Shown here in pieces: positions 785 to 51,545 of a stretch of 64,000 bases of DNA; positions within the stretch are counted from its first letter, which is position 1; each line of letters starts with the position of its first letter. The translations under genes were made by a program, and so were the position numbers. Origin of the DNA: Candidatus Portnoybacteria bacterium (GTDB lineage Bacteria > Patescibacteriota > Minisyncoccia > Portnoybacterales > GWB1-42-6); assembly GCA_028688325.1 (NCBI GenBank), contig JAQTYI010000001.1, forward strand, positions 302,620 through 366,619. The letters are read 5' to 3'. Below the pieces are notes generated by a model that worked only from the letters and a program-made list of their open reading frames with translations, was not told the DNA's origin and made no database searches.

Positions 785-1240
785 TTATTTGGGAATTATT
801 TTAATGCGCCGCTCTTCACCAACCCCCTCCGACTCTGTTTTAACTCCCGGAATATCCATCAGGGTTGTATGAATTATCCGCCTCTCATATGCATTCATGG
901 GCGGTAAATAACAGAAAGCTCCATGCTCGGCCACTTGGCGCGCTAAATTTTTTGCTGAATCCTTCAGTGTATCCAAGCGTTCCTGTTGATAATTATTCAC
1001 ATCCACCGTTAGGCGAACGCCCTCAATAATCTTCTTGCCGGCTAAAAGCCGGGCTAATTGCTGCAGAGCCCTAAGATTATCACCATTGCGGCCGATTAAA
1101 TATCCGGCTTCTTGGCTTTCTATATTAGCCAAAATGCCGCCACCGAGCTCTTCCGACAGCGACACGCGGCCGTCGACACCCACAACGCCGATCAGTCCCT
1201 CGATGACTTCTTTAATTGCCGTCAGTTTTTCTTGTTCCAT
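785..1240 (-). CDS. jag: Jag/KhpB R3H-domain RNA-binding protein (SpoIIIJ-associated)
   Basis: KH/R3H-like translation (GYLIGRNGDNLRALQQLARL...ERRIIHTTL). Sits downstream of yidC in the conserved rpmH-rnpA-yidD-yidC-jag origin cluster. Confidence 0.8.
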   Translation of the reverse strand: MEQEKLTAIKEVIEGLIGVVGVDGRVSLSEELGGGILANIESQEAGYLIGRNGDNLRALQQLARLLAGKKIIEGVRLTVDVNNYQQERLDTLKDSAKNLARQVAEHGAFCYLPPMNAYERRIIHTTLMDIPGVKTESEGVGEERRIKIIPK

Positions 1241-1370
1241 GCCAGGAAGTAGAAATTCAACTATATTTAATTTATCAAGATAAGTTAAATATAGTTAATT
1301 CACTTGTTTTTATAATTTTTGCCAGACAGTTCAAATAAAAATAAACTGTTGAATTTTCACTTCCTGGCGT
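1238..1370. mobile_element. MITE copy a. Terminal inverted repeats CATGCCAGGAAGTAGAAATTC / GAATTTTCACTTCCTGGCG flank about 90 bp of AT-rich core
   Basis: 22-bp terminal inverted repeats read directly. The jag ATG abuts the left repeat. The right repeat encodes the last codons ARK and the TGA stop of yidC. Confidence 0.8.
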
Positions 1371-2073
1371 GTTTTTTAATTACAAAATATTGTTGTATCA
1401 CTCCGGCCAAGGTCGTCACCACCCAATAAAGAGTGAGCCCGGCCGGCAAGCGCCAGGCGATAAAAACGGTGAAAAGCGGCATAAAATAAAGCATTTGCTT
1501 GTTAAGGGCGGCGCTGAAATCCGAGCCCTGGCCGGCCGCTGGCGGCTGGAAGCGGACCATCATTTTTGATTGCCAGAAAGTGAAAGCGCCGGCTAAAATA
1601 GCCAGCGCCACATTGGCATTAGCCAAACTTATCAACCCCAAAAACATCGGGTCCACCTGGCCTGGACTTGCGACAAAAGAATAAAGGGCATTTAAACTTT
1701 CGGGTTTTAATCCATTCAAAAAAACTTGATACAGCGCGATAAGAATGGGCAACTGTATCAAAAGCGGCAAACAACCGGAGGCCGGGTTGATGTTGTTTTT
1801 TTTATACAACTCCATCAGGGCTTGGGATTGCTTCACTTTGTCGGTTGAATATTTATTCTGGAGTTCTTTTATTTGGGGGGCGAGCGCCCCCAGGGATTTT
1901 TGTGAAGTAATGGCTTTTTGGTTCAATGGATACAGTATCAAGCGGATGATGACGGTAAGTAAAATTATTGCCACACCAAAATCGTGCGGCGGTATCGCGT
2001 TATATAAAAAAATAAGTCCGTTGAACAACGGCCGGTAAAGCACCTCATTAAACGCTATAGTGATGATATTCAT
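1357..2073 (-). CDS. yidC: Membrane protein insertase YidC (short Oxa1-type). The start was moved to the internal ATG so yidD is not overlapped
   Basis: Translation MNIITIAFNEVLYRPLF...AWRLPAGLTLYWVVTT... with a conserved YidC C-terminal region. Operon context. Confidence 0.85.
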   Translation of the reverse strand: MNIITIAFNEVLYRPLFNGLIFLYNAIPPHDFGVAIILLTVIIRLILYPLNQKAITSQKSLGALAPQIKELQNKYSTDKVKQSQALMELYKKNNINPASGCLPLLIQLPILIALYQVFLNGLKPESLNALYSFVASPGQVDPMFLGLISLANANVALAILAGAFTFWQSKMMVRFQPPAAGQGSDFSAALNKQMLYFMPLFTVFIAWRLPAGLTLYWVVTTLAGVIQQYFVIKKHARK

Positions 2074-2078
2074 AGGTG

Positions 2079-2309
2079 TTAAAGTAGGGGATCGTAGCCG
2101 CCGGGATTGAACGGGTGGCAATGCTTGATTCTAAACAACCCCTTAAGAATGCCCTTTATAACGCCATACTTCCCGACCGCCTGTTTAGTATATTCGGAGC
2201 ATGAGGGATAAAAACGGCAAGTCGGCGTAGATTTTCTGAAAATTCCTTTGTCGGGAGAAAGGGTCCGCTGATATGCTTCTATTAAAGATATGATTGTTTT
2301 TTTAAACAT
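2079..2309 (-). CDS. yidD: Membrane protein insertion efficiency factor YidD
   Basis: 76 aa with [11 protein letters not shown]...[11 protein letters not shown], a YidD signature. Lies between rnpA and yidC. Confidence 0.85.
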
Positions 2310-15932: not shown

Positions 15933-16033
15933 TCCCCTCTTTTGTAAAGAGGGGTTAGGGGAGATTTAGTGGATACAAGCGGTTAGAGTGTGTCCGCTTA
16001 AATTCACCCCAACCCCTCCTTTACAAAAGGAGG
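15933..16033. repeat. Family-2 repeat copy
   Basis: TTCCCCTCTTTTGTAAAGAGGGGTTAGGGGAGATTTAG ... CCCCTCCTTTACAAAAGGAGGG. Confidence 0.8.
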
Positions 16034-16063
16034 GAGTTATTTTCGTACCCTCATTATTTATAG

Positions 16064-17875: not shown

Positions 17876-18997
17876 TCAAGAAAGTGAATTTAGCAATACG
17901 GCTATTTTTTCCTTGGCATCTTTGGCGGCCATACCGGCCATTTTTACCAACAGGCGGTCGTTTTTAACGGAACCGCCGATCTCCAGGCATAGTTTTTGCA
18001 GATGCTCGGCTCTCTTGCTTTGTGCCAAGATATAAGTAGAGCCGTTATCGTCGGGCCACAAAATTATGGCCAGGTTGATTGAAGGAAAGAGGTCGTAGAT
18101 TTCGTCCAGAACGAACGGCAGGTCTTTGGCCGAAGTGCCGGTGGCGATAAAATCTTCGCGCTGGGCGAATATCCAGGCGATCTTTTCCCGATCGTCAAAT
18201 TCCAGGCGGCCCAAGAGCCGGCCCCAAAGCTTTAAGCAATTGAGCGGTTTGGTTTTGTATAGATTTTTAACGATGGTTTCTTGTTCCGCTCCCTTGATTA
18301 TCAAAAGCGACGCCAAATTCAGCGCTTGGGGAGTGGTTCGGGAATTTTGCCAGCTGTGCGTTTTAACGATGAGCCCCGCCAGCAGGAGCGTAGCAATATT
18401 GGCATCAATCGAATTTGGCGCGAGTCCCTCGATAAGTCCGACAACAATTTCCGCGCAGGCCGCGGCCGTCGGCTCGACCAAGTTCACTTCGCCGAAATAT
18501 TCATTGCCCGCCTTGCAATCGATGTTCAGGATGGATTTGTTGAAAAAAAGTTCGGTGTTGCTGTTAAAAATATCGCCCAGCGATTCCAGGTCCGGCGCGT
18601 CGATGACGATTATCAGGTCGTAGTAGAACGGGCCCGGTTCCAGCTTGATATCGCGCTGTTCTATTTTTTGCGGCGTGGCCAAAAATATTTTCAAGACGCT
18701 GCCTTCCGCTTCGTAGCGCAAGCGAGAAATCTTATTTTGGCTGGTATCCACGGAAATAACAAAATCGCGCAAAGAGGTCAGTTTATTTCTCAAGGCATCG
18801 ATGCCAGGCAGAAAGGCCAGCTTGTCCGGCGCGGCTTCCTGAGAGGCGAGTTCAACTTTTTTGCCGAGTTTTTTGAGAGTCGCTTCCAGCGCCAGAGCCG
18901 AGCCCAAAGAGTCGGCATTCAACGACTCAGGCAGAGCAATCAGGATATTTTTACTTTTCTGGATGAGGTCGATGGCTTGTTGAAGGGGGGTGAGCAT
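17876..18997 (-). CDS. DHH-family phosphoesterase (NrnA-like)
   Basis: NrnA-like N-terminus NILIALPESLNADSLGSALAL. DHH/DHHA1 architecture. 373 aa. Confidence 0.7.
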   Translation of the reverse strand: MLTPLQQAIDLIQKSKNILIALPESLNADSLGSALALEATLKKLGKKVELASQEAAPDKLAFLPGIDALRNKLTSLRDFVISVDTSQNKISRLRYEAEGSVLKIFLATPQKIEQRDIKLEPGPFYYDLIIVIDAPDLESLGDIFNSNTELFFNKSILNIDCKAGNEYFGEVNLVEPTAAACAEIVVGLIEGLAPNSIDANIATLLLAGLIVKTHSWQNSRTTPQALNLASLLIIKGAEQETIVKNLYKTKPLNCLKLWGRLLGRLEFDDREKIAWIFAQREDFIATGTSAKDLPFVLDEIYDLFPSINLAIILWPDDNGSTYILAQSKRAEHLQKLCLEIGGSVKNDRLLVKMAGMAAKDAKEKIAVLLNSLS

Positions 18998-19132
18998 ACC
19001 GGGTAGTAGAAATTTGACTTAATAATTAATTCCTGGATGGTTTATTAATTTCTATGCATTTACCGAGGTTGTAATAATTTGGCAGAATCTACATATAAAA
19101 AATAACCAGTCAAATTTTCACTACCCGGCATG
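18995..19132. mobile_element. MITE copy b
   Basis: Terminal inverted repeats CATACCGGGTAGTAGAAATTTGAC / GTCAAATTTTCACTACCCGGCATG. The left repeat abuts the DHH start codon. Confidence 0.8.
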
Positions 19133-26769: not shown

Positions 26770-27027
26770 TTACTTGTTCAGCGCTTTCATCAGTCGGGAT
26801 TTTTTCCGAGCAGCGGCGTTCTTTTTAATAACGCCTCGTTTGGCCGCTTTATCGATGGCCTGATAAGCAACGGAAATCATTTTTTTAGCTTCGTCTTTCT
26901 TGCCGGCCAGCATCAATTTGCTGATTTGTTTGAGTGCGTCTTTCATTGTCTTTTGCCGCTTCACATTCAAAACGCGGCGTCTCTTGGCCTTGCGCAGTTC
27001 TTTCTTGGCTGATTCTTTGATTGGCAT
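26770..27027 (-). CDS. rpsT: 30S ribosomal protein S20
   Basis: MPIKESAKKELRKAKRRRVLNVKRQ... The 5' extension in the ORF track is a translation of the MITE terminal repeat. Confidence 0.85.
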   Translation of the reverse strand: MPIKESAKKELRKAKRRRVLNVKRQKTMKDALKQISKLMLAGKKDEAKKMISVAYQAIDKAAKRGVIKKNAAARKKSRLMKALNK

Positions 27028-27161
27028 ACCAGGTAGTAGAAATTCGGCTATATTCATAAATCCAGCGGATCTAATCAATCTTACCGATTTCTATGGTTTT
27101 ATAAAATTTTGTCAGACAATGATAATTTAGCTAAACAGCCGAATTTTCACTACCTGGCATG
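27025..27161. mobile_element. MITE copy c1
   Basis: CATACCAGGTAGTAGAAATTCGGC ... GCCGAATTTTCACTACCTGGCATG. The left repeat donates or abuts the rpsT ATG. Confidence 0.8.
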
Positions 27162-27240
27162 GTTTGGTTGTTGATTTATAATTATTTGTTTTCGGTTCAG
27201 AGGTTGAATAGAATATAGCAGATAAATTACTTTTTGGCAA

Positions 27241-27310
27241 GCCAGGAAGTGAAAATTCGGCAGTGACTTAATTTGCCGCCATGGCGGCAGCCGAATTTCT
27301 ACTTCCTGGC
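27241..27310. mobile_element. Mini-MITE copy c2 (two terminal repeats around a 26-bp palindromic core)
   Basis: GCCAGGAAGTGAAAATTCGGCAG / GCCGAATTTCTACTTCCTGGC. The right repeat encodes the last codons ARK and the TAG stop of uvrB. Confidence 0.75.
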
Positions 27311-29453
27311 AAGTTTTTTTAATTTGTCTATTTCTTCTTTCAGCCGCATGGACTCATCAAATTGCAGATTGCGGTTGGCCAGGTCCATTTTAAATTGCAG
27401 TTCGCGGATATATTCTTTGAGATAGTTCGTGTCCTCCGAAGCTTTAGCGAAGGAGGATCTGCCGGTTTTCACTTCCGCCAGAACTTCCACAATGCTTGCT
27501 CGAATATCCTTAGTTATGGCTTGTGGCGAGATGCGATGTTTTTTATTGTATTCTTCCTGTGTCTGGCGGCGGCGGTTGGTTTCATTGATGGCGCGGCGCA
27601 TCGATTGGGTTACCTTATCTGCATACAAGATTGCCTGGCCATCAAGGTGGCGCGAAGCGCGACCGATGGTCTGGATAAGAGTGGTTTCATTGCGCAAAAA
27701 TCCCTCTTTGTCCGCGTCCAGAATCGCCACGAGCGAAACTTCGGGCAAGTCCAGCCCTTCGCGCAAAAGATTTATGCCGACCAACACATCAAATTCTCCT
27801 TGGCGCAATTTTTTCAAGATTTCCGGCCTCTCCAGCGTCTTGACCTCTGAGTGCAGGTAAGCCGTCTTGATCTTTTCTTCTGTCAGATATTCGGCCAGAT
27901 CCTCGGCCATTCTTTTGGTGAGAGTCGTTACCAGCACCCGCTGTTTTTTTGCCACGCGTTTTTTGATCTCTTTAATGAGATCGGGGATCTGGTTCTGGCT
28001 GGGGCGGACATCGATTTTCGGGTCCAAAAGCCCCGTCGGACGGATGAGTTGTTCAATCACATATTTATTTGTCATCCCGGGTCACCCGCCTCGCCCGACG
28101 AGCGTGCGAGTCGAGGCGGGTGACCCGGGATCCAGATTTGGAAATTTGGGCCTGGATTCCCGCTTCCAGTTTACCCCGCACTTGATGCGGGGCGGGAATG
28201 ACAGAAGAGAAAGGTTTACAATTCACGGCTTGTGTTTTGGCGGTCTCGTATTTCCCCGGCGTGGCGGAGGTATAAATAACCTGGCTTATCTTTTTTTCAA
28301 ATTCCGGGAATTTCAGCGGCCGGTTATCCAGGGCGCTGGGCAAGCGGAAGCCAAAATCAATGAGCGTTTGTTTGCGCGAACGGTCGCCTTCATACATCGC
28401 GCCGATCTGGGGCACGCTCATATGCGACTCATCAATTATCATCAAGAAATCATTCGGATAATAATCCAGCAGGGTGGAGGGGGCGGTGCCGCCTTGGCGC
28501 AGTTCCAGGTGCCGGGAATAATTTTCAATGCCGTGGCAATAGCCGACTTCTTTTAACATTTCCAAATCATAATTGGTGCGCCGGCTCAGGCGCTCGGCTT
28601 CCAAACTTTTGCCATCTTTCCCCAATCTTTTTAATTGTTCGTCCAGTTCGGCACGGATGTTGGCGATGGACGCGTCTATTTTTTTCTGCGGCGAAACCCA
28701 AAATTTCGCCGGATATATCCTGGCGGAATTTATTTGCTCATCTTGTCCGGCAAAGATGTCTTTTAAGGATCGCAGGGGCTTTGCGCTGATGCGGGTTATT
28801 TTATGGGCTTCAAATTCGGCCTTAATTGTCAACTCGCCCGTGGCCAGCCATATCTCAACGATGTTGCCGCGCACCCGGTATGTGCTGCGTTTAAAATCAA
28901 TATCGGAGCGAGTATATTGCAATGCGGCCAGCTGGCGCAAAAAAACTTGCCGGGAAATTTCTTGGCCTTGTTTTATCTCCACGCTCAATCCCTGATAGTC
29001 ACCGGGCGAGCCGATGTTGTAGATGCAGGAAACCGACGCCACCACGATAGCGTCTTCGCGCGTCAGCAAAGATTGCGTGGCGGCATGGCGCAGCCGGTCC
29101 AGCTCCTCGTTTATCTTGGCGTCTTTTTGTATGTAGGTGTCAGTGGTGGGAATATATGCTTCCGGCTGGTAGTAGTCATAATAGGAGACGAAATAGTTTA
29201 CGGAATTATTTGGAAAGAATTCTTTGAATTCCTGGTATAATTGCGCGGCCAAGGTTTTGTTGTGAGAAATTATCAGCGTGGGCTTTTGCACTTTTTCAAT
29301 GACATTGGCCATAGTGAAAGTTTTGCCGCTGCCGGTCACGCCCAAAAGCACCTGGTGCTTGGCGCCGGCGTTCAGATTTTTGACTAATTTATTTATGGCG
29401 TTCGGCTGGTCGCCTGTCGGCTTGTATGGGGCGTGGATTTTGAATTGCGGCAT
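27299..29453 (-). CDS. uvrB: Excinuclease ABC subunit B (UvrB). Reading frame broken by a roughly 140-bp family-1 repeat at about 28068-28207, leaving two overlapping ORFs (27299-28075 and 28065-29453). Possible pseudogene or sequencing frameshift
   Basis: N-terminal ORF has helicase motifs [10 protein letters not shown] and DESH plus the beta-hairpin region. C-terminal ORF resumes at [13 protein letters not shown] and ends with the UvrB C-terminal coiled coil. The N-terminal ORF reads through the repeat and stops in a different frame. Confidence 0.8.
28068..28207. repeat. Family-1 repeat inserted inside uvrB
   Basis: TTGTCATCCCGGGTCACCCGCC...CCCGCACTTGATGCGGGGCGGGAATGACAGAAG. About 140 bp, not a multiple of three. 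Confidence 0.8.
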
Positions 29454-30158: not shown

Positions 30159-31343
30159 ATGGATAAACAAACTTGGAATAAATTTGTTTTAGAAAATGGT
30201 GGTAGCTTTTTGCAATCCTGGGAATGGGGCGAATTTCAAGAAAACATTGGCAGGCGTGTTTTTAGGTTTTTGCATTGTCATCCCGAATTTATTTCGGGAT
30301 CTGATTCAGAGGCCCTGAAACAAGTTCAGGGCGACAAAGGGGGCTGGCGAGCTCAATTCATTGCTAACAAACTACCTGGTGTTAATAAATTTTATTGGCA
30401 TTGTCCGCGCGGGCCGGTTTTGGCCAATGGCGATGAGCAAATGGCAAATAGCCAAATACGGAAAATCATAGACGCGGTTAAAAAATCAGCGGATAAAAAA
30501 GTTATATTTTTTCGTTTTGGGCCCGAGTGGCCTCTTGATTGTCATTCCGGGCTTGACCCGGAATCCAGATCTGGATCCCGCATCGAGTGCGGGATGACAG
30601 AAAAGGATTTAAAAAATATTGGCTTCAAGCAGCTATCATACGATATCGAGCCCTCACAAACGCAAATTTTAGATATTTCAAAAACCGAAGACGAATTGTT
30701 GGCGCAGATGCACGAAAAATGGCGCTACAATATCCGCCTGGCGCAGAAGAAGGGTGTGCAGATAAAATTCACGCAGTCAGAGTGCGTGAATTTTGAGTAT
30801 TATTTTGAGGAATTTTATCGGCTGGTGAGCCAAGGCACTTCGGAGCGCAACAATATCAAGCATCATCCGAAAGAATATTATAGAAAGCAGTTGAAAATTG
30901 GCGCTAAATCTCCCCTGACCCCTCTTTACGAAAGAGGGGAAGACCCTCCTTTTGTAAAGGAGGGCGAGGGAGGATTTAGAGAAACATTATTTGTGGCCGA
31001 ATATGAAGGCAAGGTTATTGCGGCAAATATTGTCGTGATCTTTGGCAATCGCGCCACTTATCTTCACGGCGCCACAAGCAGCGAGCATCGCGAAGTTATG
31101 GCGCCGCATCTTTTGCAATGGGAGCAGATAAAATATGCCAAAGCGCAGGGCTGTTCGGAATACGATTTCTGGGGAGTTGTGAACGAACACACCTTGGACA
31201 GACGCGGCAAATCCTGGGAGGGCTTCACTCGCTTCAAAAAGGGCTTTGGCGGTAAAGAAGCGAATTACATCGGTTATTGGGATTATCCATTTGACAAGAA
31301 GTGGTATTCGTTATATAGATTAGTGCAAAAGTTTAGGAGATAA
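30159..31343 (+). CDS. FemAB-family peptidoglycan bridge aminoacyltransferase-like protein, carrying two in-frame repeat insertions
   Basis: FemAB N-terminus (WNKFVLENGGSFLQSWEWGEFQ). Family-1 insert translated as DCHSGLDPESRSGSRIECGMTEKD. Family-2 insert translated as SPLTPLYERGEDPPFVKEGEGGFRE. Confidence 0.7.
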   Translation: MDKQTWNKFVLENGGSFLQSWEWGEFQENIGRRVFRFLHCHPEFISGSDSEALKQVQGDKGGWRAQFIANKLPGVNKFYWHCPRGPVLANGDEQMANSQIRKIIDAVKKSADKKVIFFRFGPEWPLDCHSGLDPESRSGSRIECGMTEKDLKNIGFKQLSYDIEPSQTQILDISKTEDELLAQMHEKWRYNIRLAQKKGVQIKFTQSECVNFEYYFEEFYRLVSQGTSERNNIKHHPKEYYRKQLKIGAKSPLTPLYERGEDPPFVKEGEGGFRETLFVAEYEGKVIAANIVVIFGNRATYLHGATSSEHREVMAPHLLQWEQIKYAKAQGCSEYDFWGVVNEHTLDRRGKSWEGFTRFKKGFGGKEANYIGYWDYPFDKKWYSLYRLVQKFRR

Positions 31344-32296: not shown

Positions 32297-33779
32297 AAAA
32301 CTGATTCCCGACAGGATGCTGAGCATCTATCATTTCAAATTGGCGCTTTTGGGGGCGCTGGTTTTTGGTTTCCCGAGTAGGAAATTGAGGGTTATTGGCG
32401 TGACGGGAACAAAAGGGAAGTCGACCGTGGTGATGTTGGCGGGGAAGATATTGCAGGAGAATATAACCTCACCCCAACCCTCTCCTTCAAAAGGAGAGGG
32501 GGAAGTTTTTAACCCCCCAACCCCCCTTTGCGTAAGGGGGGATGAAAACGGGGATTTTTGTGAAAGCGGGCAAGCCGAATTTGCCCCCCTTGTAAAGGGG
32601 GGCGCAGGGGGGTTAAAAAATGTCGGATGGATCTCTTCGCTCACGATAAACGACGGGAAAAATGAAACGATGAACCCCTATCATATGACGATGCCAGGCA
32701 GGTTTTTTATTCAAAAGACGCTGGCGCAGATGATAAAAAACGGCTGCGAATACGCGCTGGTTGAAGTGACCAGCGAAGGAATAAAACAGCACCGGCATCG
32801 CTTCATCAACTGGGCGGGCGCGGCGTTCACTAACCTCGCGGCTGAGCATTTGGAAGCGCACGGCGGGTTTGAAAATTACAGAAAAGCCAAAGAGAAACTA
32901 TTTGCCGCCGCGGCAAAAAATGAAGATAGTTTCGGGGTGTATAACCTGGATGATGAAAATGTCGGTGAGTTTTTGAAGTATGGGATCGCAAGAAAAATTG
33001 GATACGGAATTCTTAACCCCCCAACCCCCCTTTGCGTAAGGGGGGATGAAAACGGGGATTTTTGTGAAAGCGGGCAAGCCGAATTTATCGTAAAGGGGGG
33101 CGAAGAGGGGTTAAAGAATTTACGAATTTCCAATATTCAATTATCTGGCAGTGGCTCGGAATTTGTCATCAACGGCGTGGAATTTAAAACCAAATTCTTG
33201 GGTGAGTTCAATATTTATAACTGCGCCGCCGCCGCGGCTATCGGGCAGGTCTGCGGCGTGCCGCTAAAAGTTGCGGCGCAGGCGCTCGCAAAGATAAAAT
33301 CTATTCCGGGTCGATTGGAAATAATTGATGAGGGTCAGGATTTTACGGTCGTGGTTGATCTGGCGCACACGCCGGATTCTTTTGAACAAGTTTTCAGATT
33401 GTTCGGAGAGTTGAAGCAAAATAAAATCATCTCGGTTTTCGGCGCGGCCGGCGGCGGGCGCGATAAATGGAAGCGGCCGGAACTTGGCAGAATCGCCTCG
33501 GCTTATTCGGACCAGGTTTTTATTACCAATGAAGACCCGTATGAGGAGGACCCTCTTAAAATAGCGGATGAAATATTGGCCGGGTGCGATAAGAGTAAAA
33601 CCGACATAATCTTGGACCGCCGGCAGGCCATTGCCCGCGCCTTGTCTTTGGCGCGCAAGGGTGATATAGTTTTAATCCTCGGTAAAGGAACGGAACAAAC
33701 GATGGTTGCCAGCGATAAAAAATATGATTGGGATGACAGAAGGGTCGTTCGCGAGGAATTGAAAAAAATAGTTCATTAA
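32280..33779 (+). CDS. murE: Mur ligase family protein (MurE-like UDP-MurNAc-tripeptide synthetase) with two in-frame copies of a roughly 100-bp GC-rich repeat
   Basis: P-loop VIGVTGTKGKSTV. DLAHTPDS. C-terminal SVFGAAGGGRDKWKRPELGRIA...ITNEDPYEEDP. Both inserts translate to the identical stretch NPPTPLCVRGDENGDFCESGQAEF. Confidence 0.7.
   Translation: MKQLLKKLIPDRMLSIYHFKLALLGALVFGFPSRKLRVIGVTGTKGKSTVVMLAGKILQENITSPQPSPSKGEGEVFNPPTPLCVRGDENGDFCESGQAEFAPLVKGGAGGLKNVGWISSLTINDGKNETMNPYHMTMPGRFFIQKTLAQMIKNGCEYALVEVTSEGIKQHRHRFINWAGAAFTNLAAEHLEAHGGFENYRKAKEKLFAAAAKNEDSFGVYNLDDENVGEFLKYGIARKIGYGILNPPTPLCVRGDENGDFCESGQAEFIVKGGEEGLKNLRISNIQLSGSGSEFVINGVEFKTKFLGEFNIYNCAAAAAIGQVCGVPLKVAAQALAKIKSIPGRLEIIDEGQDFTVVVDLAHTPDSFEQVFRLFGELKQNKIISVFGAAGGGRDKWKRPELGRIASAYSDQVFITNEDPYEEDPLKIADEILAGCDKSKTDIILDRRQAIARALSLARKGDIVLILGKGTEQTMVASDKKYDWDDRRVVREELKKIVH
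32470..32630. repeat. Family-2b GC-rich repeat inside murE (copy 1)
   Basis: CCCCCCAACCCCCCTTTGCGTAAGGGGGGATGAAAACGGGGATTTTTGTGAAAGCGGGCAAGCCGAATTT... identical over about 70 nt to the copy at 33015-33115. Confidence 0.8.
33015..33115. repeat. Family-2b repeat inside murE (copy 2)
   Basis: Same sequence as copy 1. Confidence 0.8.
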
Positions 33780-35045: not shown

Positions 35046-35294
35046 CTCCTTGATAAATGAAAAAACGCGGACGGGCTTCCATGACCCATACTGGGCATGT
35101 GAAGAGAAGCATGGTGAGGTGTCTTTTGGCCGCGATAGCGCAGGGGCTCGTCGCCGGAGCGATAGCGGGCAAAAGACATCTGGGCACGCGTATTGTTACA
35201 TACGCAGAGCTTAATGGTAAGTCAAACTTCTTTCCGCCAGATGCTGGCAGGCCGATGGCTCGCAGAGCCACCTAAGTCAAGCCCGTCCGCGTTT
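35046..35294 (-). ncRNA. Candidate retron msr/msd non-coding RNA locus bounded by perfect 16-bp inverted repeats (a1/a2)
   Basis: AAACGCGGACGGGCTT at 35063-35078 is the exact reverse complement of 35279-35294. The intervening roughly 200 nt is GC-rich with several hairpins. It ends 24 nt before the reverse transcriptase ATG. The ORFs the track places here (35023..35271, 35057..35275) look non-coding. Confidence 0.55.
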
Positions 35295-35398
35295 ATTGTT
35301 AAGGTGCTAAACAAAGATAATTGATAGTAGCTATTTTTATTAAGGAAGTCAAGAAATAAAAAACCCCGCGCTTGATGTTGATGCGCGGGGTCGAGTTT

Positions 35399-35782: not shown

Positions 35783-35909
35783 AAGACCCTCCTTGTGGGT
35801 GGTATGGGTAGCTGATAAGAACTATATCTGATAGTTATATTATATCAAAACGCTATGAATATGTCAATAGTAGCGCTAAAATACCGGAAAGTGTATAATA
35901 TATCGGTAT

Positions 35910-36221
35910 GCCAGGTAGTAGAAATTCGACAGCGATTATGTTCTATTATGTTTATATTTTAGAGAGTTTAAAGAATAAGGAATTGTATGTCGGTTACACG
36001 GGTGATTTAAACAAGAGAATAAAAGAACATAATCGCGGATTGGTTTTTTCTACAAAACCATATCTGCCTTGGCTAATTATATTTTACGAGGCCTATAGGA
36101 GCGAAAAAGACGCCAGAAGGAGAGAGGCGTATTTAAAGACCAGCCAAGGCAGCAGATTGTTAAAAAGAATGCTTAAAGAATATTTTTATAATAAAGAATA
36201 AGTCGAATTTTCACTACCTGG
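35910..36221. mobile_element. Autonomous-looking member of the MITE family: terminal inverted repeats enclosing a GIY-YIG nuclease gene
   Basis: Left repeat GCCAGGTAGTAGAAATTCGACAGCG. Right repeat GTCGAATTTTCACTACCTGG. The same repeats as the non-coding MITE copies. Confidence 0.75.
35938..36201 (+). CDS. Small GIY-YIG nuclease family protein (87 aa) carried inside the repeat-flanked element
   Basis: MFYYVYILESLKNKELYVGYTGDLNKRIKEHNRG...R...AYLKT...LLKRML. GIY...YVG and catalytic R/E/N spacing. Confidence 0.75.
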   Translation: MFYYVYILESLKNKELYVGYTGDLNKRIKEHNRGLVFSTKPYLPWLIIFYEAYRSEKDARRREAYLKTSQGSRLLKRMLKEYFYNKE

Positions 36222-36348
36222 AATGAAAAACTACGCTTCAGCCAGGGCGGGAAGGGGCAAAACGACCTATCGCACGCCGAGCGTATTTAAATATCAGAAG
36301 TGCCGGAAGGTGGAGAAAATTAAAATGGTTAATAAAAATATTAAACAA

Positions 36349-36486
36349 TTGTCATCCCGGGCCTGACCCGGGATCCAGGCCCTGAAGCCCAACCGTCGCT
36401 AAAGCTTTGGCGAGGCAAGCAAGTTCAGGGCGACAAAAAACCTGGATTCTCCCCGCACTTGATGCGGGGCGGGAATGACAAAATGA
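36349..36486. repeat. Family-1 repeat ending inside the annotated 5' end of the next gene
   Basis: TTGTCATCCCGGGCCTGACCCGGGATCCAGG ... CCCCGCACTTGATGCGGGGCGGGAATGACAAAATGACAA. Confidence 0.8.
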
Positions 36487-37911: not shown

Positions 37912-38042
37912 GCCAGGCAGTGAAAATTCGGCAGTTTATACGGATTATCATTGGTTGGTAAAGATAGATAAAACTATAGAGTTTGGCATCATTAATTAAG
38001 TTCGTTGAATTTAATTAATATAGCCGAATTTCTACTGCCCGG
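37912..38042. mobile_element. MITE copy e (inverted orientation)
   Basis: GCCAGGCAGTGAAAATTCGGCAG ... GCCGAATTTCTACTGCCCGG, then T and the ATG of the downstream gene. Confidence 0.8.
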
Positions 38043-43929: not shown

Positions 43930-44010
43930 CTATTTGCCCCTCCCTTTTTAAAGGGAGGTTGGGAGGGATTTAAATCCACCCCCACCCCTCCTTTAAAAAG
44001 GAGGGAGAAA
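43930..44010. repeat. Family-2 repeat
   Basis: CCCCTCCCTTTTTAAAGGGAGGTTGGGAGGGATTTAAATCCACCCCCACCCCTCCTTTAAAAAGGAGGGAG. Confidence 0.8.
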
Positions 44011-44097
44011 ATAAATAAGTTTTATTTAGTCATTGTTCTTGACTCCCCATTTTAACGGTAATATTATTAAAATAAGATAATCATTAACCATAAACCT

Positions 44098-44313: not shown

Positions 44314-44441
44314 GCCAGGTGGTGAAAATTTGACGCTTTAATTATAAATATGCGAGTATCTGGTAATATAAAAAGTAGGGAATAATACAAGGATTAATAA
44401 TTTTTTAATGAGTAATTCTTGGTCAAATTTCTACTACCTGG
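44314..44441. mobile_element. MITE copy f
   Basis: GCCAGGTGGTGAAAATTTGACGC ... GTCAAATTTCTACTACCTGG, then T and the ATG of the downstream gene. Confidence 0.8.
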
Positions 44442-48298: not shown

Positions 48299-48490
48299 TG
48301 TCATCCCGCACTTGCCTTGCCCTTCTATAGCTTTTAGCGAAGGAGGGATCGGGATCCAGGTCCTAAACTAAATCCCTCCCAACCTCCCTTTACGGAAAGG
48401 GAGGGGTAAGATTAAATCCACCTCACCCCTCCTTTTATAAAGGAGGGAGTTCCTCCCTTTGAAAAAGGGAGGTTAGGAGGGAGTTTAAAT
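48299..48490. repeat. Composite family-1 plus family-2 repeat block
   Basis: TTGTCATCCCGCACTTG...GGGATCCAGG followed by three family-2 hairpins (CCTCCCTTTACGGAAAGGGAGG and others). Confidence 0.8.
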
Positions 48491-50065: not shown

Positions 50066-50222
50066 ATTTGACGAAGTTTTACGGGCCGTGGCCCGTGGCG
50101 GGCTTTACGGGCTGCGCCGCGTGATCATGAGCGAAATTAATGATGTTGCCCCGTAAAATAATTTGCTGACGCAAATTACCACGGGGCGCGTTAAATCCTT
50201 CGCTTCGCTCATGATTTTACGC

Positions 50223-50610
50223 GGTGGAGACGGGGAGATTGAACTCCCGTCCAAAAAATATTCTTAAAATACATCTACAAACTTAGCCTGATTTATTTGA
50301 TGGGATCTGAAGCTGTGAATCAGGCAAAAACGTTTCAGACCCTATCCGGTAATTTTTCAATCGCATCCCCCGGAAAGGATACTATCTATTCCGAAAAGAT
50401 TACACCCGGGCTCTGCCTATCGGAAGTCGTCAGGCCGGATGGGTTTTGGGCTATTTTATTAGGCCAGAACCGGAGCATAAGAAGGCGCGAACGCATTCTT
50501 GATGCCTGTCATAAAGTTGACATTTGTTTGTTTGCTGAAAGTTTATCGAGATTTTAGCACACTCGGTTTGCGTATTTTTAAGGACATTTGATGTCGAAAC
50601 TTGCGCCCCC
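50223..50610 (-). ncRNA. ssrA: tmRNA (ssrA), standard one-piece form
   Basis: Minus-strand 5' end GGGGGCGCAAGTTTCGACA, a tRNA-like 5' domain. 3' end GGACGGGAGTTCAATCTCCCCGTCTCCACC, a T-arm plus acceptor that pairs with the 5' end. Internal tag reading frame ...NAFAPSYAPVLA followed by TAATAA. Adjacent to smpB. Confidence 0.65.
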
Positions 50611-50822: not shown

Positions 50823-51275
50823 TTATTCAATTTTTCCTCTCACCGCCCGCCGGATGCGCCGGTCCGATTCGCGCTTGCCGATGATATCCCGTTTGTCGAT
50901 GGTCCTTTTGCCGCGGCCCAGGGCGAACTCCAACTTGATTTTACCCGATTTATTATAAACCCGAATAGGCACCAAAGTCAACCCGGTCTGCTTCGTTGAG
51001 CCGATAAGCGAGCGGATCTCGTTCTTATGGAGCAGAAGCTTGCGCGAGCGGGTGGGGCTGTAGTCGGCCGGGACATTGCCCGCTTGGTAGGGGGCGATAG
51101 TGGCGTTTAACAGCCACGCTTCTTCGCCCTTGATGACCACAAAAACCCCTTGGAGCGAAATATGGCCCCCGCGCACGGATTTGACTTCTTGGCCGCTCAA
51201 AACCAGCCCTGCTTCGTAGGTTTCCAAAAAAGCGTAGTCATAGCTGGCTTGCCGGTTGAAAGCGTAGTCGGACAT
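50823..51275 (-). CDS. smpB: SsrA-binding protein SmpB
   Basis: ...IAPYQ...RKLLLHKNEI...TLVPIRVY...KIKLEFALGRGKR..DKR..., an SmpB signature. The ATG abuts the MITE repeat. Confidence 0.9.
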   Translation of the reverse strand: MSDYAFNRQASYDYAFLETYEAGLVLSGQEVKSVRGGHISLQGVFVVIKGEEAWLLNATIAPYQAGNVPADYSPTRSRKLLLHKNEIRSLIGSTKQTGLTLVPIRVYNKSGKIKLEFALGRGKRTIDKRDIIGKRESDRRIRRAVRGKIE

Positions 51276-51408
51276 ACCGGGTAGTGAAAATTTGATATAT
51301 TAATTATTGTTCTATGCACTTGCCAAGTAGTATAAATTTCGGAGGGTATTGAACTATAGTATGCGCTGATATAAGGGATACCCAATCGAATTTCTACTAC
51401 CCGGCATA
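51273..51408. mobile_element. MITE copy g
   Basis: CATACCGGGTAGTGAAAATTTGATAT ... ATCGAATTTCTACTACCCGGCAT. Confidence 0.8.
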
Positions 51409-51416
51409 TTAAGTTT

Positions 51417-51545
51417 ACCCCGTAGTAGAACTTCGATTCGTGTGATTTAATAAGATTTATTAACTTATTTACCTGCCATAATTTGTTTGGCTACTCTTAT
51501 TCTAACCGAAAAACATAAAATATCGAAGTTTCACTACGGGGTTTT
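51417..51545. mobile_element. MITE copy h (divergent subfamily, CCCCG instead of CCGGG termini)
   Basis: ACCCCGTAGTAGAACTTCGAT ... ATCGAAGTTTCACTACGGGGT. Both arms carry the same divergent terminus, so the two ends stay complementary. Confidence 0.7.

Follow-up and report, generated by a model that had tools for sequence, protein, structure and literature searches.

Ala-Arg-Lys-stop endings of yidC and uvrB as probable by-products of a small inverted-repeat element family with a predicted GIY-YIG nuclease gene

Transposable elements of the miniature inverted-repeat type (MITEs) are known to fuse in frame to host open reading frames (ORFs) and thereby to alter the ends of proteins (PMC10969869). 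Neisseria REP2 and Borrelia upstream repeats lie directly upstream of genes, to which they bring an ATG and expression signals (PMC3184786), and homing enzymes, which have long DNA-binding domains, spread by gene conversion into one cognate site, with neither inverted ends nor duplications (PMC1564403). GIY-YIG genes have been counted among the frequently transferred genes of Patescibacteria in one paper, which describes no element. We analyzed a 64,000-nucleotide (nt) stretch of a Candidatus Portnoybacteria genome (contig JAQTYI010000001.1, positions 302,620 to 366,619; hereafter the window), in which a first-pass annotation had pointed out that yidC and uvrB both end in Ala-Arg-Lys-stop inside copies of a repeat, and had proposed that either insertion replaced the native C-termini or the entry frame is under selection. 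Here we report that these ARK-stop tails are very probably by-products of insertions by one small family of mobile elements, whose ~315-bp coding form has a predicted GIY-YIG nuclease gene between its ends.

The two gene ends read as the annotation had them: on the minus strand, yidC closes with ...AAA AAA CAC GCC AGG AAG TGA (stop 1359-1357) and uvrB with ...AAA AAA CTT GCC AGG AAG TAG (stop 27301-27299), and both stops fall within 20-nt repeat arms (1348-1367 for yidC, 27290-27309 for uvrB). In both tails the arm-derived part starts at the CC of GCC, while the G is the last base of a 4-bp target duplication. A degenerate pattern of the arm matches 10 times in the window, against 0.01 matches expected from shuffled sequence. 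Pfam assigns YidC to 60KD_IMP (E=1e-52) and UvrB to the Helicase_C and UvrB domains, and the NCBI YidC protein of this genome (P0001, 100% identical) likewise terminates in HARK, with an annotated start later than that of the 251-amino-acid ORF. The features at the two sites are these:

1357-2112, minus strand: yidC; its last three codons and stop, GCC AGG AAG TGA (1368-1357), come from the G of the duplication and the TGA arm of element a.
1242-1367, plus strand: element a, a MITE of 126 bp with arms of the rare CCAGGAAG variant; TAG arm 1242-1261, TGA arm 1348-1367.
1238-1241 (CATG) and 1368-1371 (CGTG): target duplication of element a, with one mutation.
785-1240, minus strand: jag/khpB, with R3H and KH domains; its ATG (1240-1238) lies within the duplicated target, 1 nt off the TAG arm.
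27299-28075, minus strand: C-terminal part of uvrB; the final GCC AGG AAG TAG (27310-27299) comes from element c2.
27242-27309, minus strand: element c2, a short MITE of 68 bp with arms of the CCAGGAAG variant; TGA arm 27242-27261, TAG arm 27290-27309.
27238-27241 and 27310-27313: CAAG duplication of c2, CTTG on the gene strand.
27029-27157, plus strand: element c1, a 129-bp MITE; duplication CATA at 27025-27028 and CATG at 27158-27161.
26770-27027, minus strand: rpsT; its start codon is the exact insertion point of c1.
27212-27240, minus strand: putative native rpsT promoter (TTGCCA-17 nt-TATATT plus an upstream TG), a consensus match alone.

The states before and after insertion were both recovered for yidC and for uvrB. 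In a 95%-identical relative, the YidC protein (P0002) has the tail ...IKKHGTRKTNGN, the native end being ...KKHGTRKTNGN, and the corresponding contigs (L120/L121) are element-free, with yidC and jag overlapping by 29 nt around a single CATG. The window reads CACG(element a)CATG at the same site, and in-silico excision of element a together with one duplicated CATG gives back ...IKKHGTRKTDGN-stop. These comparisons show that element a struck the jag start codon, inside the 29-nt yidC/jag overlap. As a consequence, the last eight residues of YidC, GTRKT(D/N)GN, were exchanged for ARK, jag retained an ATG through the duplication, and the formerly overlapping genes now stand apart.

At uvrB, the five nearest orthologues terminate in ...KK[IVFL]AKK, and contig L124 carries uvrB, 64 nt and then rpsT, with no element in between. 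When c2, c1 and one duplication each are removed from the window, the remainder aligns base for base with L124 and restores ...KLKKLAKK-stop. The point of entry of c2 was a CTTG located 9 nt ahead of the native uvrB stop, such that AKK-stop became ARK-stop, and the native end GCC AAA AAG TAA persists just beyond c2 (27232-27241). In L085, from another Portnoybacteria genome, UvrB is intact and closes with ...KKVARK-stop, and the orthologous c2 occupies the same site; c1 is present in neither L124 nor L085. Because L085 carries c2 and not c1, we take c2 to be an old, tolerated insertion, and a and c1 to be younger. The promoter-like site of rpsT is kept in both L124 and L085, and its -35 box, TTGCCA, which overlaps the original uvrB end, was left intact by the c2 duplication. 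We also considered whether GCCAAAAAGTAA downstream of c2 could be a decayed arm; this was ruled out, as it is conserved native sequence in the element-free L124. Together, orthologue tails and element-free loci bear out the first of the annotation's two alternatives: in alignments of the YidC and UvrB C-termini native residues have been replaced in both proteins, and the orthologue tails are equally long or longer rather than ending ahead of the repeat.

The uvrB gene has a second interruption. An unrelated 169-nt repeat insertion (28064-28232), belonging to another palindromic repeat family (TGTCATTCCCGC...GCGGGAATCC and GGATCCCGGGTCACCC...GGGTGACCCGGGATGACA), splits it into two ORFs; on the intact UvrB of L085 the break maps between residues 413 and 415. 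Of the two, the N-terminal ORF (28065-29453) continues through the insert, the C-terminal ORF (27299-28075) begins at an ATG that the insert end supplies, and no database protein was found for either half; the interrupted uvrB is either a pseudogene or a split gene.

Elements a and c2 share a common anatomy with the other copies. Each element is bounded by 20-nt terminal inverted repeats (arms of 20-24 nt in every copy), arm 1 being CCAGG(T/A)AGTAGAAATTCGRC and arm 2 CCAGG(T/A)AGTGAAAATTCGRC. The TAG arm contains ...AGTAGAAATT... and the TGA arm ...AGTGAAAATT..., with one of each per pair; this dinucleotide difference (GTAGAAA vs GTGAAAA) is constant, with 0 of 150 pairs symmetric, while other arm positions co-vary freely. 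In fold predictions for single strands, the units form stems of ~20 bp interrupted by a single mismatch, with energies of -42 to -50 kcal/mol and z of -6 to -8; element a as RNA (-42.6 kcal/mol, z -8.1) and c2 (-42.4 kcal/mol, z -7.6) are two examples. Three sizes occur: about 70 and 130 bp, both non-coding, and ~315 bp, coding. Within the window, pairs span 126-130 bp (a, b, c1, e and f), 68 bp (c2) and 311 bp (d).

Inside many 130-bp copies there is also a third unit that resembles an arm in forward orientation, CCAGnTAGTGAtAT, set in from the TGA arm by ~35 nt (e.g. 1322-1336 and 27113-27127). This unit can pair with the TGA arm into a local ~70-nt hairpin resembling the short form, and it can also be read as a -35-like TTGCCA/TTACCA box.

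Several observations indicate that the family is mobile. A first sample of 50 arm pairs was found by arm sequence, and 150 pairs in all were collected from dozens of genomes. Exact 4-bp direct repeats flank 33 of the 50 elements, with the consensus CAT(A/G) when the TAG arm is on the left, that is (T/C)ATG on the gene strand. Among copies with a left flank other than CATA, 11 of 20 match exactly, and CTTG, CAAG, GAGG, TTTT and TATT each pair with themselves; since differing flanks match site by site, the repeats are a target-site duplication and not part of a longer fixed end. Nuclease-bearing copies have exact 4-bp duplications in 39 of 55 cases, CATA in 33. Orthologous sites differ by presence and absence: L120/L121 are empty for a, L124 is empty for c1 and c2, and L085 holds c2 only. 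The spacing between paired arms falls into classes of 60-100, 120-160 and 300-400 nt, with none of the 150 pairs at 400-10,000 nt. A scan for the arm pattern across one genome per species, in which many single matches arise by chance, recovered paired TAG and TGA arm loci that were all from Patescibacteria (candidate phyla radiation) assemblies, and hosts include Parcubacteria GW2011_GWB1_40_14, Portnoybacteria, Yanofsky-, Komeili-, Moran- and Nealsonbacteria. Viral contigs yielded no exact arm match, hence no sign of phage carriage.

The favored target is a start codon. About 35 of the first 50 elements have a long outward ORF whose ATG begins just 1 nt beyond the arm, and the window cases are jag, the DHH-family gene, rpsT, the SLOG-family gene, the ThiI-like gene (at a solo arm) and a 150-amino-acid ORF beside f. 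Among non-redundant elements, 83 of 136 (about 60%) directly adjoin an ATG that opens an ORF of 60 codons or more. Once the empty sites are rebuilt, the frame of this ATG stays open upstream for a median of 5 codons, which marks genuine starts rather than Met codons within a gene; start-like sites make up 57% of elements vs 12% of control TATG sites. The TAG arm faces the host gene start in about 85-90% of copies, and in the remaining copies, which are inverted, the nuclease gene is inverted as well and stays co-directional with the host gene. Targeted leaders are AT-rich, and Shine-Dalgarno (SD)-like motifs occur in 13% only, a scarcity for which we dropped the idea that a hairpin bridging SD to ATG explains why insertions are tolerated. 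The start-codon preference is either built into the mechanism or a residue of selection.

A second target class was also seen, in which short elements with a TGGA (TCCA) duplication lie at the 3' end of a conserved gene and give tails of the form ...(F/Y)(Y/W)WTG-stop (L145, L166, L167, L170, L187, L188, L192, L194, L196, L201 and L206). Copies of this class are often tandem, ~75 nt upstream of a GIY-YIG gene whose arms are more diverged.

The coding form is represented in the window by element d:

35911-36221, plus strand: element d, the 311-bp full-length form; flanked by TATG (35907-35910) and AATG (36222-36225).
Parts of element d: TAG arm 35911-35930, a 7-nt spacer, GIY-YIG ORF 35938-36201, TGA arm 36202-36221.

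The ORF encodes an 87-amino-acid GIY-YIG protein, lies exactly between the arms and is the sole gene of the ~315-bp form. A 319-bp element in a Komeilibacteria genome (L073) encodes a 72%-identical homologue, and a metagenome search with both proteins returned 80 loci. Both arms flank 62 of 82 homologous GIY-YIG gene copies, the arm usually ending 7 nt before the ATG, and this gene is the only cargo among the 150 arm pairs. The protein scores 60.3 bits against the Pfam GIY-YIG family (PF01541; 22.6-bit cut-off, E=2.3e-16). Across 60 sequences Y27, R37, H41, N42 and E73 are invariant and Y16 and E61 at least 90% conserved; by analogy with I-TevI and Slx1, these residues are candidate catalytic positions. 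A structure model (pLDDT 83) has the order strand-strand-helix-strand-helices, and its first seven residues, which are encoded by the arm, are predicted to be disordered. The nearest solved relatives by sequence are the UPF0213 structures 1zg2 (E=1e-5) and 1ywl and the Slx1 nuclease domain, and the top Foldseek matches (1zg2, 7cq2, 4xm5 and 6seh) likewise belong to UPF0213/Slx1.

The edge of the coding form provides a number of clues to its expression: firstly, the arm (20 nt) and the spacer (7 nt) add up to 27 nt that are stop-free in the nuclease frame, which puts the nuclease in frame with a host ATG that directly flanks the element; secondly, 32 of 41 ATG-flanked long copies, d among them, are open in this frame by our own reading of the listed lengths, the ORF of d being open from the flanking ATG at 35908 (MPGSRNSTAI-MFYY...); thirdly, of the 120 closest proteins in the database, ~85% start with MPGSENS or MPGSRNS, i.e. 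have been called from the flanking ATG; and fourthly, copies at 65-79% protein identity retain both the arm-ATG spacing and the open frame. The nuclease gene is always co-directional with the downstream host gene, which restarts at the duplicated ATG past the far arm. In element d a TGTATAAT box is found 8 nt before the captured ATG, a position that suggests a leaderless host transcript.

Just downstream of d, a 47-codon ORF (36223-36366, plus strand) takes its last codons and stop, QLSSRA-stop, from a copy of the TTGTCATCCCGGG...CCCGGGATCC repeat (from ~36348), which makes this a second repeat family that supplies an ORF end.

From these features we propose how the family may move and be expressed. 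The host ATG beside the element would serve as the start codon of the nuclease (MPGSENST...), so that capture of a start codon would be the route of nuclease expression, with translation from the host initiation region; the element would become the first cistron of the host gene, which would restart at the duplicated ATG after the far arm. The predicted nuclease, Slx1-like, would act on the hairpin-forming ends, cutting these and a 4-nt staggered target, and host repair would join the ends and fill the 4-nt gaps. That the GIY-YIG protein mobilizes the family in this manner, cutting ends and target with host repair finishing the reaction, is a proposal we put forward tentatively, at not quite even odds on present sequence comparisons. 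The further claim, that the ~315-bp unit is an autonomous transposable element with a bare predicted GIY-YIG nuclease as its only protein, we place at a probability of roughly 40%. Excision by cruciform resolution of the Holliday-junction type was considered and rejected, since its topology gives hairpin-capped breaks and not an excised element.

Five points weigh against the proposal. Out-of-frame copies make up 9 of the 41 long copies and include that of L073. Fold predictions put the ATG of the downstream host gene at the foot of the 20-bp stem, so that initiation there should be hindered unless translation or an internal promoter opens the stem. We know of no route by which a hydrolytic 87-amino-acid GIY-YIG domain would achieve strand transfer or sequence recognition, and for want of known strand transfer the joining would have to fall to the host. 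The 300-400-nt spacing class is oversampled, the metagenome loci having been picked through the nuclease gene. Finally, the copies analyzed are related by descent, and neither the in-frame count nor the association with arms represents independent events.

The alternative that survives best is that a conventional transposase encoded elsewhere (e.g. of the DDE type, with 4-bp duplications) moves the elements in trans, the GIY-YIG gene being a passenger or a homing-type colonist. Terminal inverted repeats with a short duplication are the classic DDE signature, GIY-YIG enzymes are hydrolases for which we know of no strand-transfer chemistry, and non-coding forms outnumber the coding form, making up 48 of the 50 pairs in the unbiased sample found by arm sequence. 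Against this, 0 of 150 pairs enclose more than 400 nt and the GIY-YIG gene is their sole cargo; with pairs 400-10,000 nt apart absent from this set, which covers the window and the collected loci (L001-L206), no transposase ORF of ~1 kb or longer was found between the same ends. The conserved spacing and open frame, moreover, fit an integral gene better than a passenger. We regard movement in trans as a live possibility, though one that falls short of being probable.

A different question is whether the shared tail is itself functional, ARK-stop being a selected C-terminal tag or the entry frame being selected. Read inward, the arm has stops in one of its three frames only (N-CC AGG (A/T)AG, then TAG or TGA), the other two being open, and therefore ORFs seen to end in that stretch of arm share that frame. 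The common entry frame that the annotation had noted for yidC and uvrB is real, both genes passing through N-CC AGG AAG to the stop. A gene that enters this frame acquires Arg-(Lys)-stop; the rare CCAGGAAG variant accounts for the Lys, and a duplication ending in G yields GCC, and hence Ala. With stops confined to one of three entry frames, frame-specific selection is not needed. ORFs that end in arms in other genomes do so in the same frame, as ...YAR-stop, ...SR-stop and ...WTG-stop, or in a second frame, as ...CQVVEI-stop, at sites where the stop of the upstream gene shared bases with the targeted ATG (ATGA).

In favor of selection, both ARK-giving copies belong to the rare CCAGGAAG variant, with Lys in place of an earlier stop; the ARK of UvrB is a near-mimic of the conserved native AKK and is retained in two diverged genomes; and the immediate-stop frame is the commonest among ORFs ending in arms. 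We nevertheless consider selection for the tail or frame improbable: the native YidC tail is unrelated to ARK, and YidC tails differ widely among orthologues; the AAG variant is also found in copies that terminate no gene (L020, L148 and L199); other genes end in AR, SR, TG or CQVVEI; and the entry frame is set by how the upstream gene overlapped the targeted ATG. This comparison draws on a small sample of related copies. Because the change from AKK to ARK in UvrB is strikingly conservative, it is conceivable that insertions yielding short, native-like tails may survive better.

Less probable still is that the arms are resident regulatory signals (leader, promoter or terminator) and not mobile DNA. 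Many start codons do have an arm at a distance of 1 nt, hexamers resembling promoter boxes can be read within the arms and next to them, and the Neisseria REP2 and Borrelia repeats, with promoter, ribosome-binding site and ATG, provide a precedent (PMC3184786). Orthologous sites without the element contradict this reading, site-specific 4-bp duplications speak against it, and in more than 60 loci identical arms enclose the nuclease gene. Copies may, once inserted, affect regulation as a side effect. Promoter scans gave consensus-level matches in and beside the arms, and because element interiors are poorly conserved between genomes, we make no claim of an element promoter. An Rfam scan of the window at gathering thresholds returned the tmRNA and one tRNA only, the arms matching no curated RNA family. 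A relation to integron attC sites was likewise set aside; copy a fits RYYYAAC/GTTRRRY, yet other copies carry GGC/GCC there. Finally, that the read-in is an artefact of ORF extension, the real proteins stopping ahead of the repeat, can be dismissed, as neither ORF has an earlier in-frame stop, native orthologue tails are as long or longer, and Pfam homology of YidC extends to 6 residues from its end.

The remaining copies in the window, with the genes that they adjoin, are as follows:

18999-19128, plus strand: element b, a 130-bp MITE; duplication CATA at 18995-18998 and CATG at 19129-19132; adjoins the DHH-family gene at its ATG.
17876-18997, minus strand: DHH-family gene, its ATG next to element b.
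37913-38042, minus strand: element e, a 130-bp MITE; TATG duplication on both flanks; the TAG arm adjoins the ATG (38044) of the SLOG-family gene.
44422-44441, minus strand: solo TAG-type arm, with 1 nt separating it from the ATG (44443) of the ThiI-like gene downstream.
51277-51404, plus strand: element f, a 128-bp MITE; duplication CATA on both flanks; the TGA arm adjoins the ATG of the gene at 50823-51275 (minus strand).

No partner was found for the solo arm at 44422-44441. A further, degenerate copy lies beside element f (51417-51542). The 150-amino-acid ORF at element f (50823-51275, minus strand) is ~200 nt from a tmRNA gene (50222-50610, minus strand; Rfam, 112.8 bits), and could be smpB, a candidate assignment by position and size alone.

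Other repeats and structures occur in the window. A third palindromic repeat family, CCCCTCCCTTT..AAAGGGAGG(G), is intergenic (15933-16035, 32506-32619, 43931-44013 and 48370-48485), and more copies of a GTCATCCCG...CGGGATGAC repeat family lie at 30276-30301, 30540-30599 and 45137-45178/45417-45458, some apparently within ORFs. Between 35060 and 35297, a G+C-rich segment of ~240 nt is closed by a 19-nt inverted repeat (35060-35078 / 35279-35297); it contains no long ORF, Rfam returned nothing for it at E<=0.1, and we list it as a candidate for a structured RNA.

By sitting flush with start and stop codons in small Patescibacteria genomes, elements of this family shape predicted protein ends: many database nuclease entries begin MPGSENST, and formerly overlapping genes get separated. 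If the nuclease drives movement, it would represent a new enzymatic route to transposition and an economical borrowing of host expression signals. If the ~315-bp unit is autonomous, its transposase would belong to none of the DDE, serine, tyrosine, HUH and Cas1 classes, in a unit under half the size of the smallest insertion sequences, which are ~700 bp long. Such a unit would insert right behind a host start codon and hand a duplicated ATG back, its ORF, at the element edge and without start signals of its own, being translated by the host initiation region.

Compared with known systems, the flagged coincidence of tails is by itself ordinary, given that MITE insertions were already known to rewrite ORF ends. 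Rickettsia palindromic elements, Neisseria Correia elements and intragenic ERIC/BOX elements are likewise small, hairpin-forming, dispersed inverted repeats (PMC10969869). These ORF-remodelling MITEs have other arm sequences, whereas the present family has a CAT(A/G) 4-bp duplication and an exact preference for start codons; unlike them, it also has an identifiable coding form, a candidate parent with the same ends and a GIY-YIG gene. Correia elements duplicate TA, and neither their arm sequence nor their duplication agrees with the family described here. GIY-YIG is not mentioned in a 2024 review of MITEs (PMC10969869).

The REP/REPIN repeats and their RAYT genes (the REPtron) are alike in having one small nuclease-type gene between inverted hairpin repeats and in the dispersal of these repeats as non-coding doublets (PMC3184786). 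RAYT, however, is an HUH/Y1 protein related to IS200/IS605, and the gene enclosed here is of the GIY-YIG family. The REP family makes no target duplication, in contrast to the 4-bp duplication and gene-start sites seen here. GIY-YIG homing genes (I-TevI and the Seg proteins) resemble the coding form as selfish units whose only product is a GIY-YIG nuclease; the unit described here differs in encoding a bare 87-amino-acid catalytic domain, in its inverted ends and in occupying many sites, each with a 4-bp duplication. REP2 and the Borrelia repeats give the host gene its promoter, ribosome-binding site and ATG, whereas here the ATG is the host's own, duplicated, with the upstream copy predicted to be used by the element ORF.

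The UPF0213 proteins (BH0048 and EF2693) and the Slx1 nuclease domain are the best matches in sequence and fold, and the literature searched records no mobile-element role for UPF0213 proteins. Slx1 cuts branched and stem-loop DNA, an activity that would suit a hairpin-ended element, and it has an added RING domain and a partner, Slx4. A search of the full-text literature, whose coverage is incomplete such that an earlier description is possible, brought up no GIY-YIG element of prokaryotes that has inverted ends and duplications. In none of the systems compared do inverted ends occur together with a 4-bp duplication, a GIY-YIG gene and start-codon capture; as a whole, these comparisons place the element family as a variation on the MITE and insertion-sequence theme, in which the coincidence of the two tails is fully explained by insertion.

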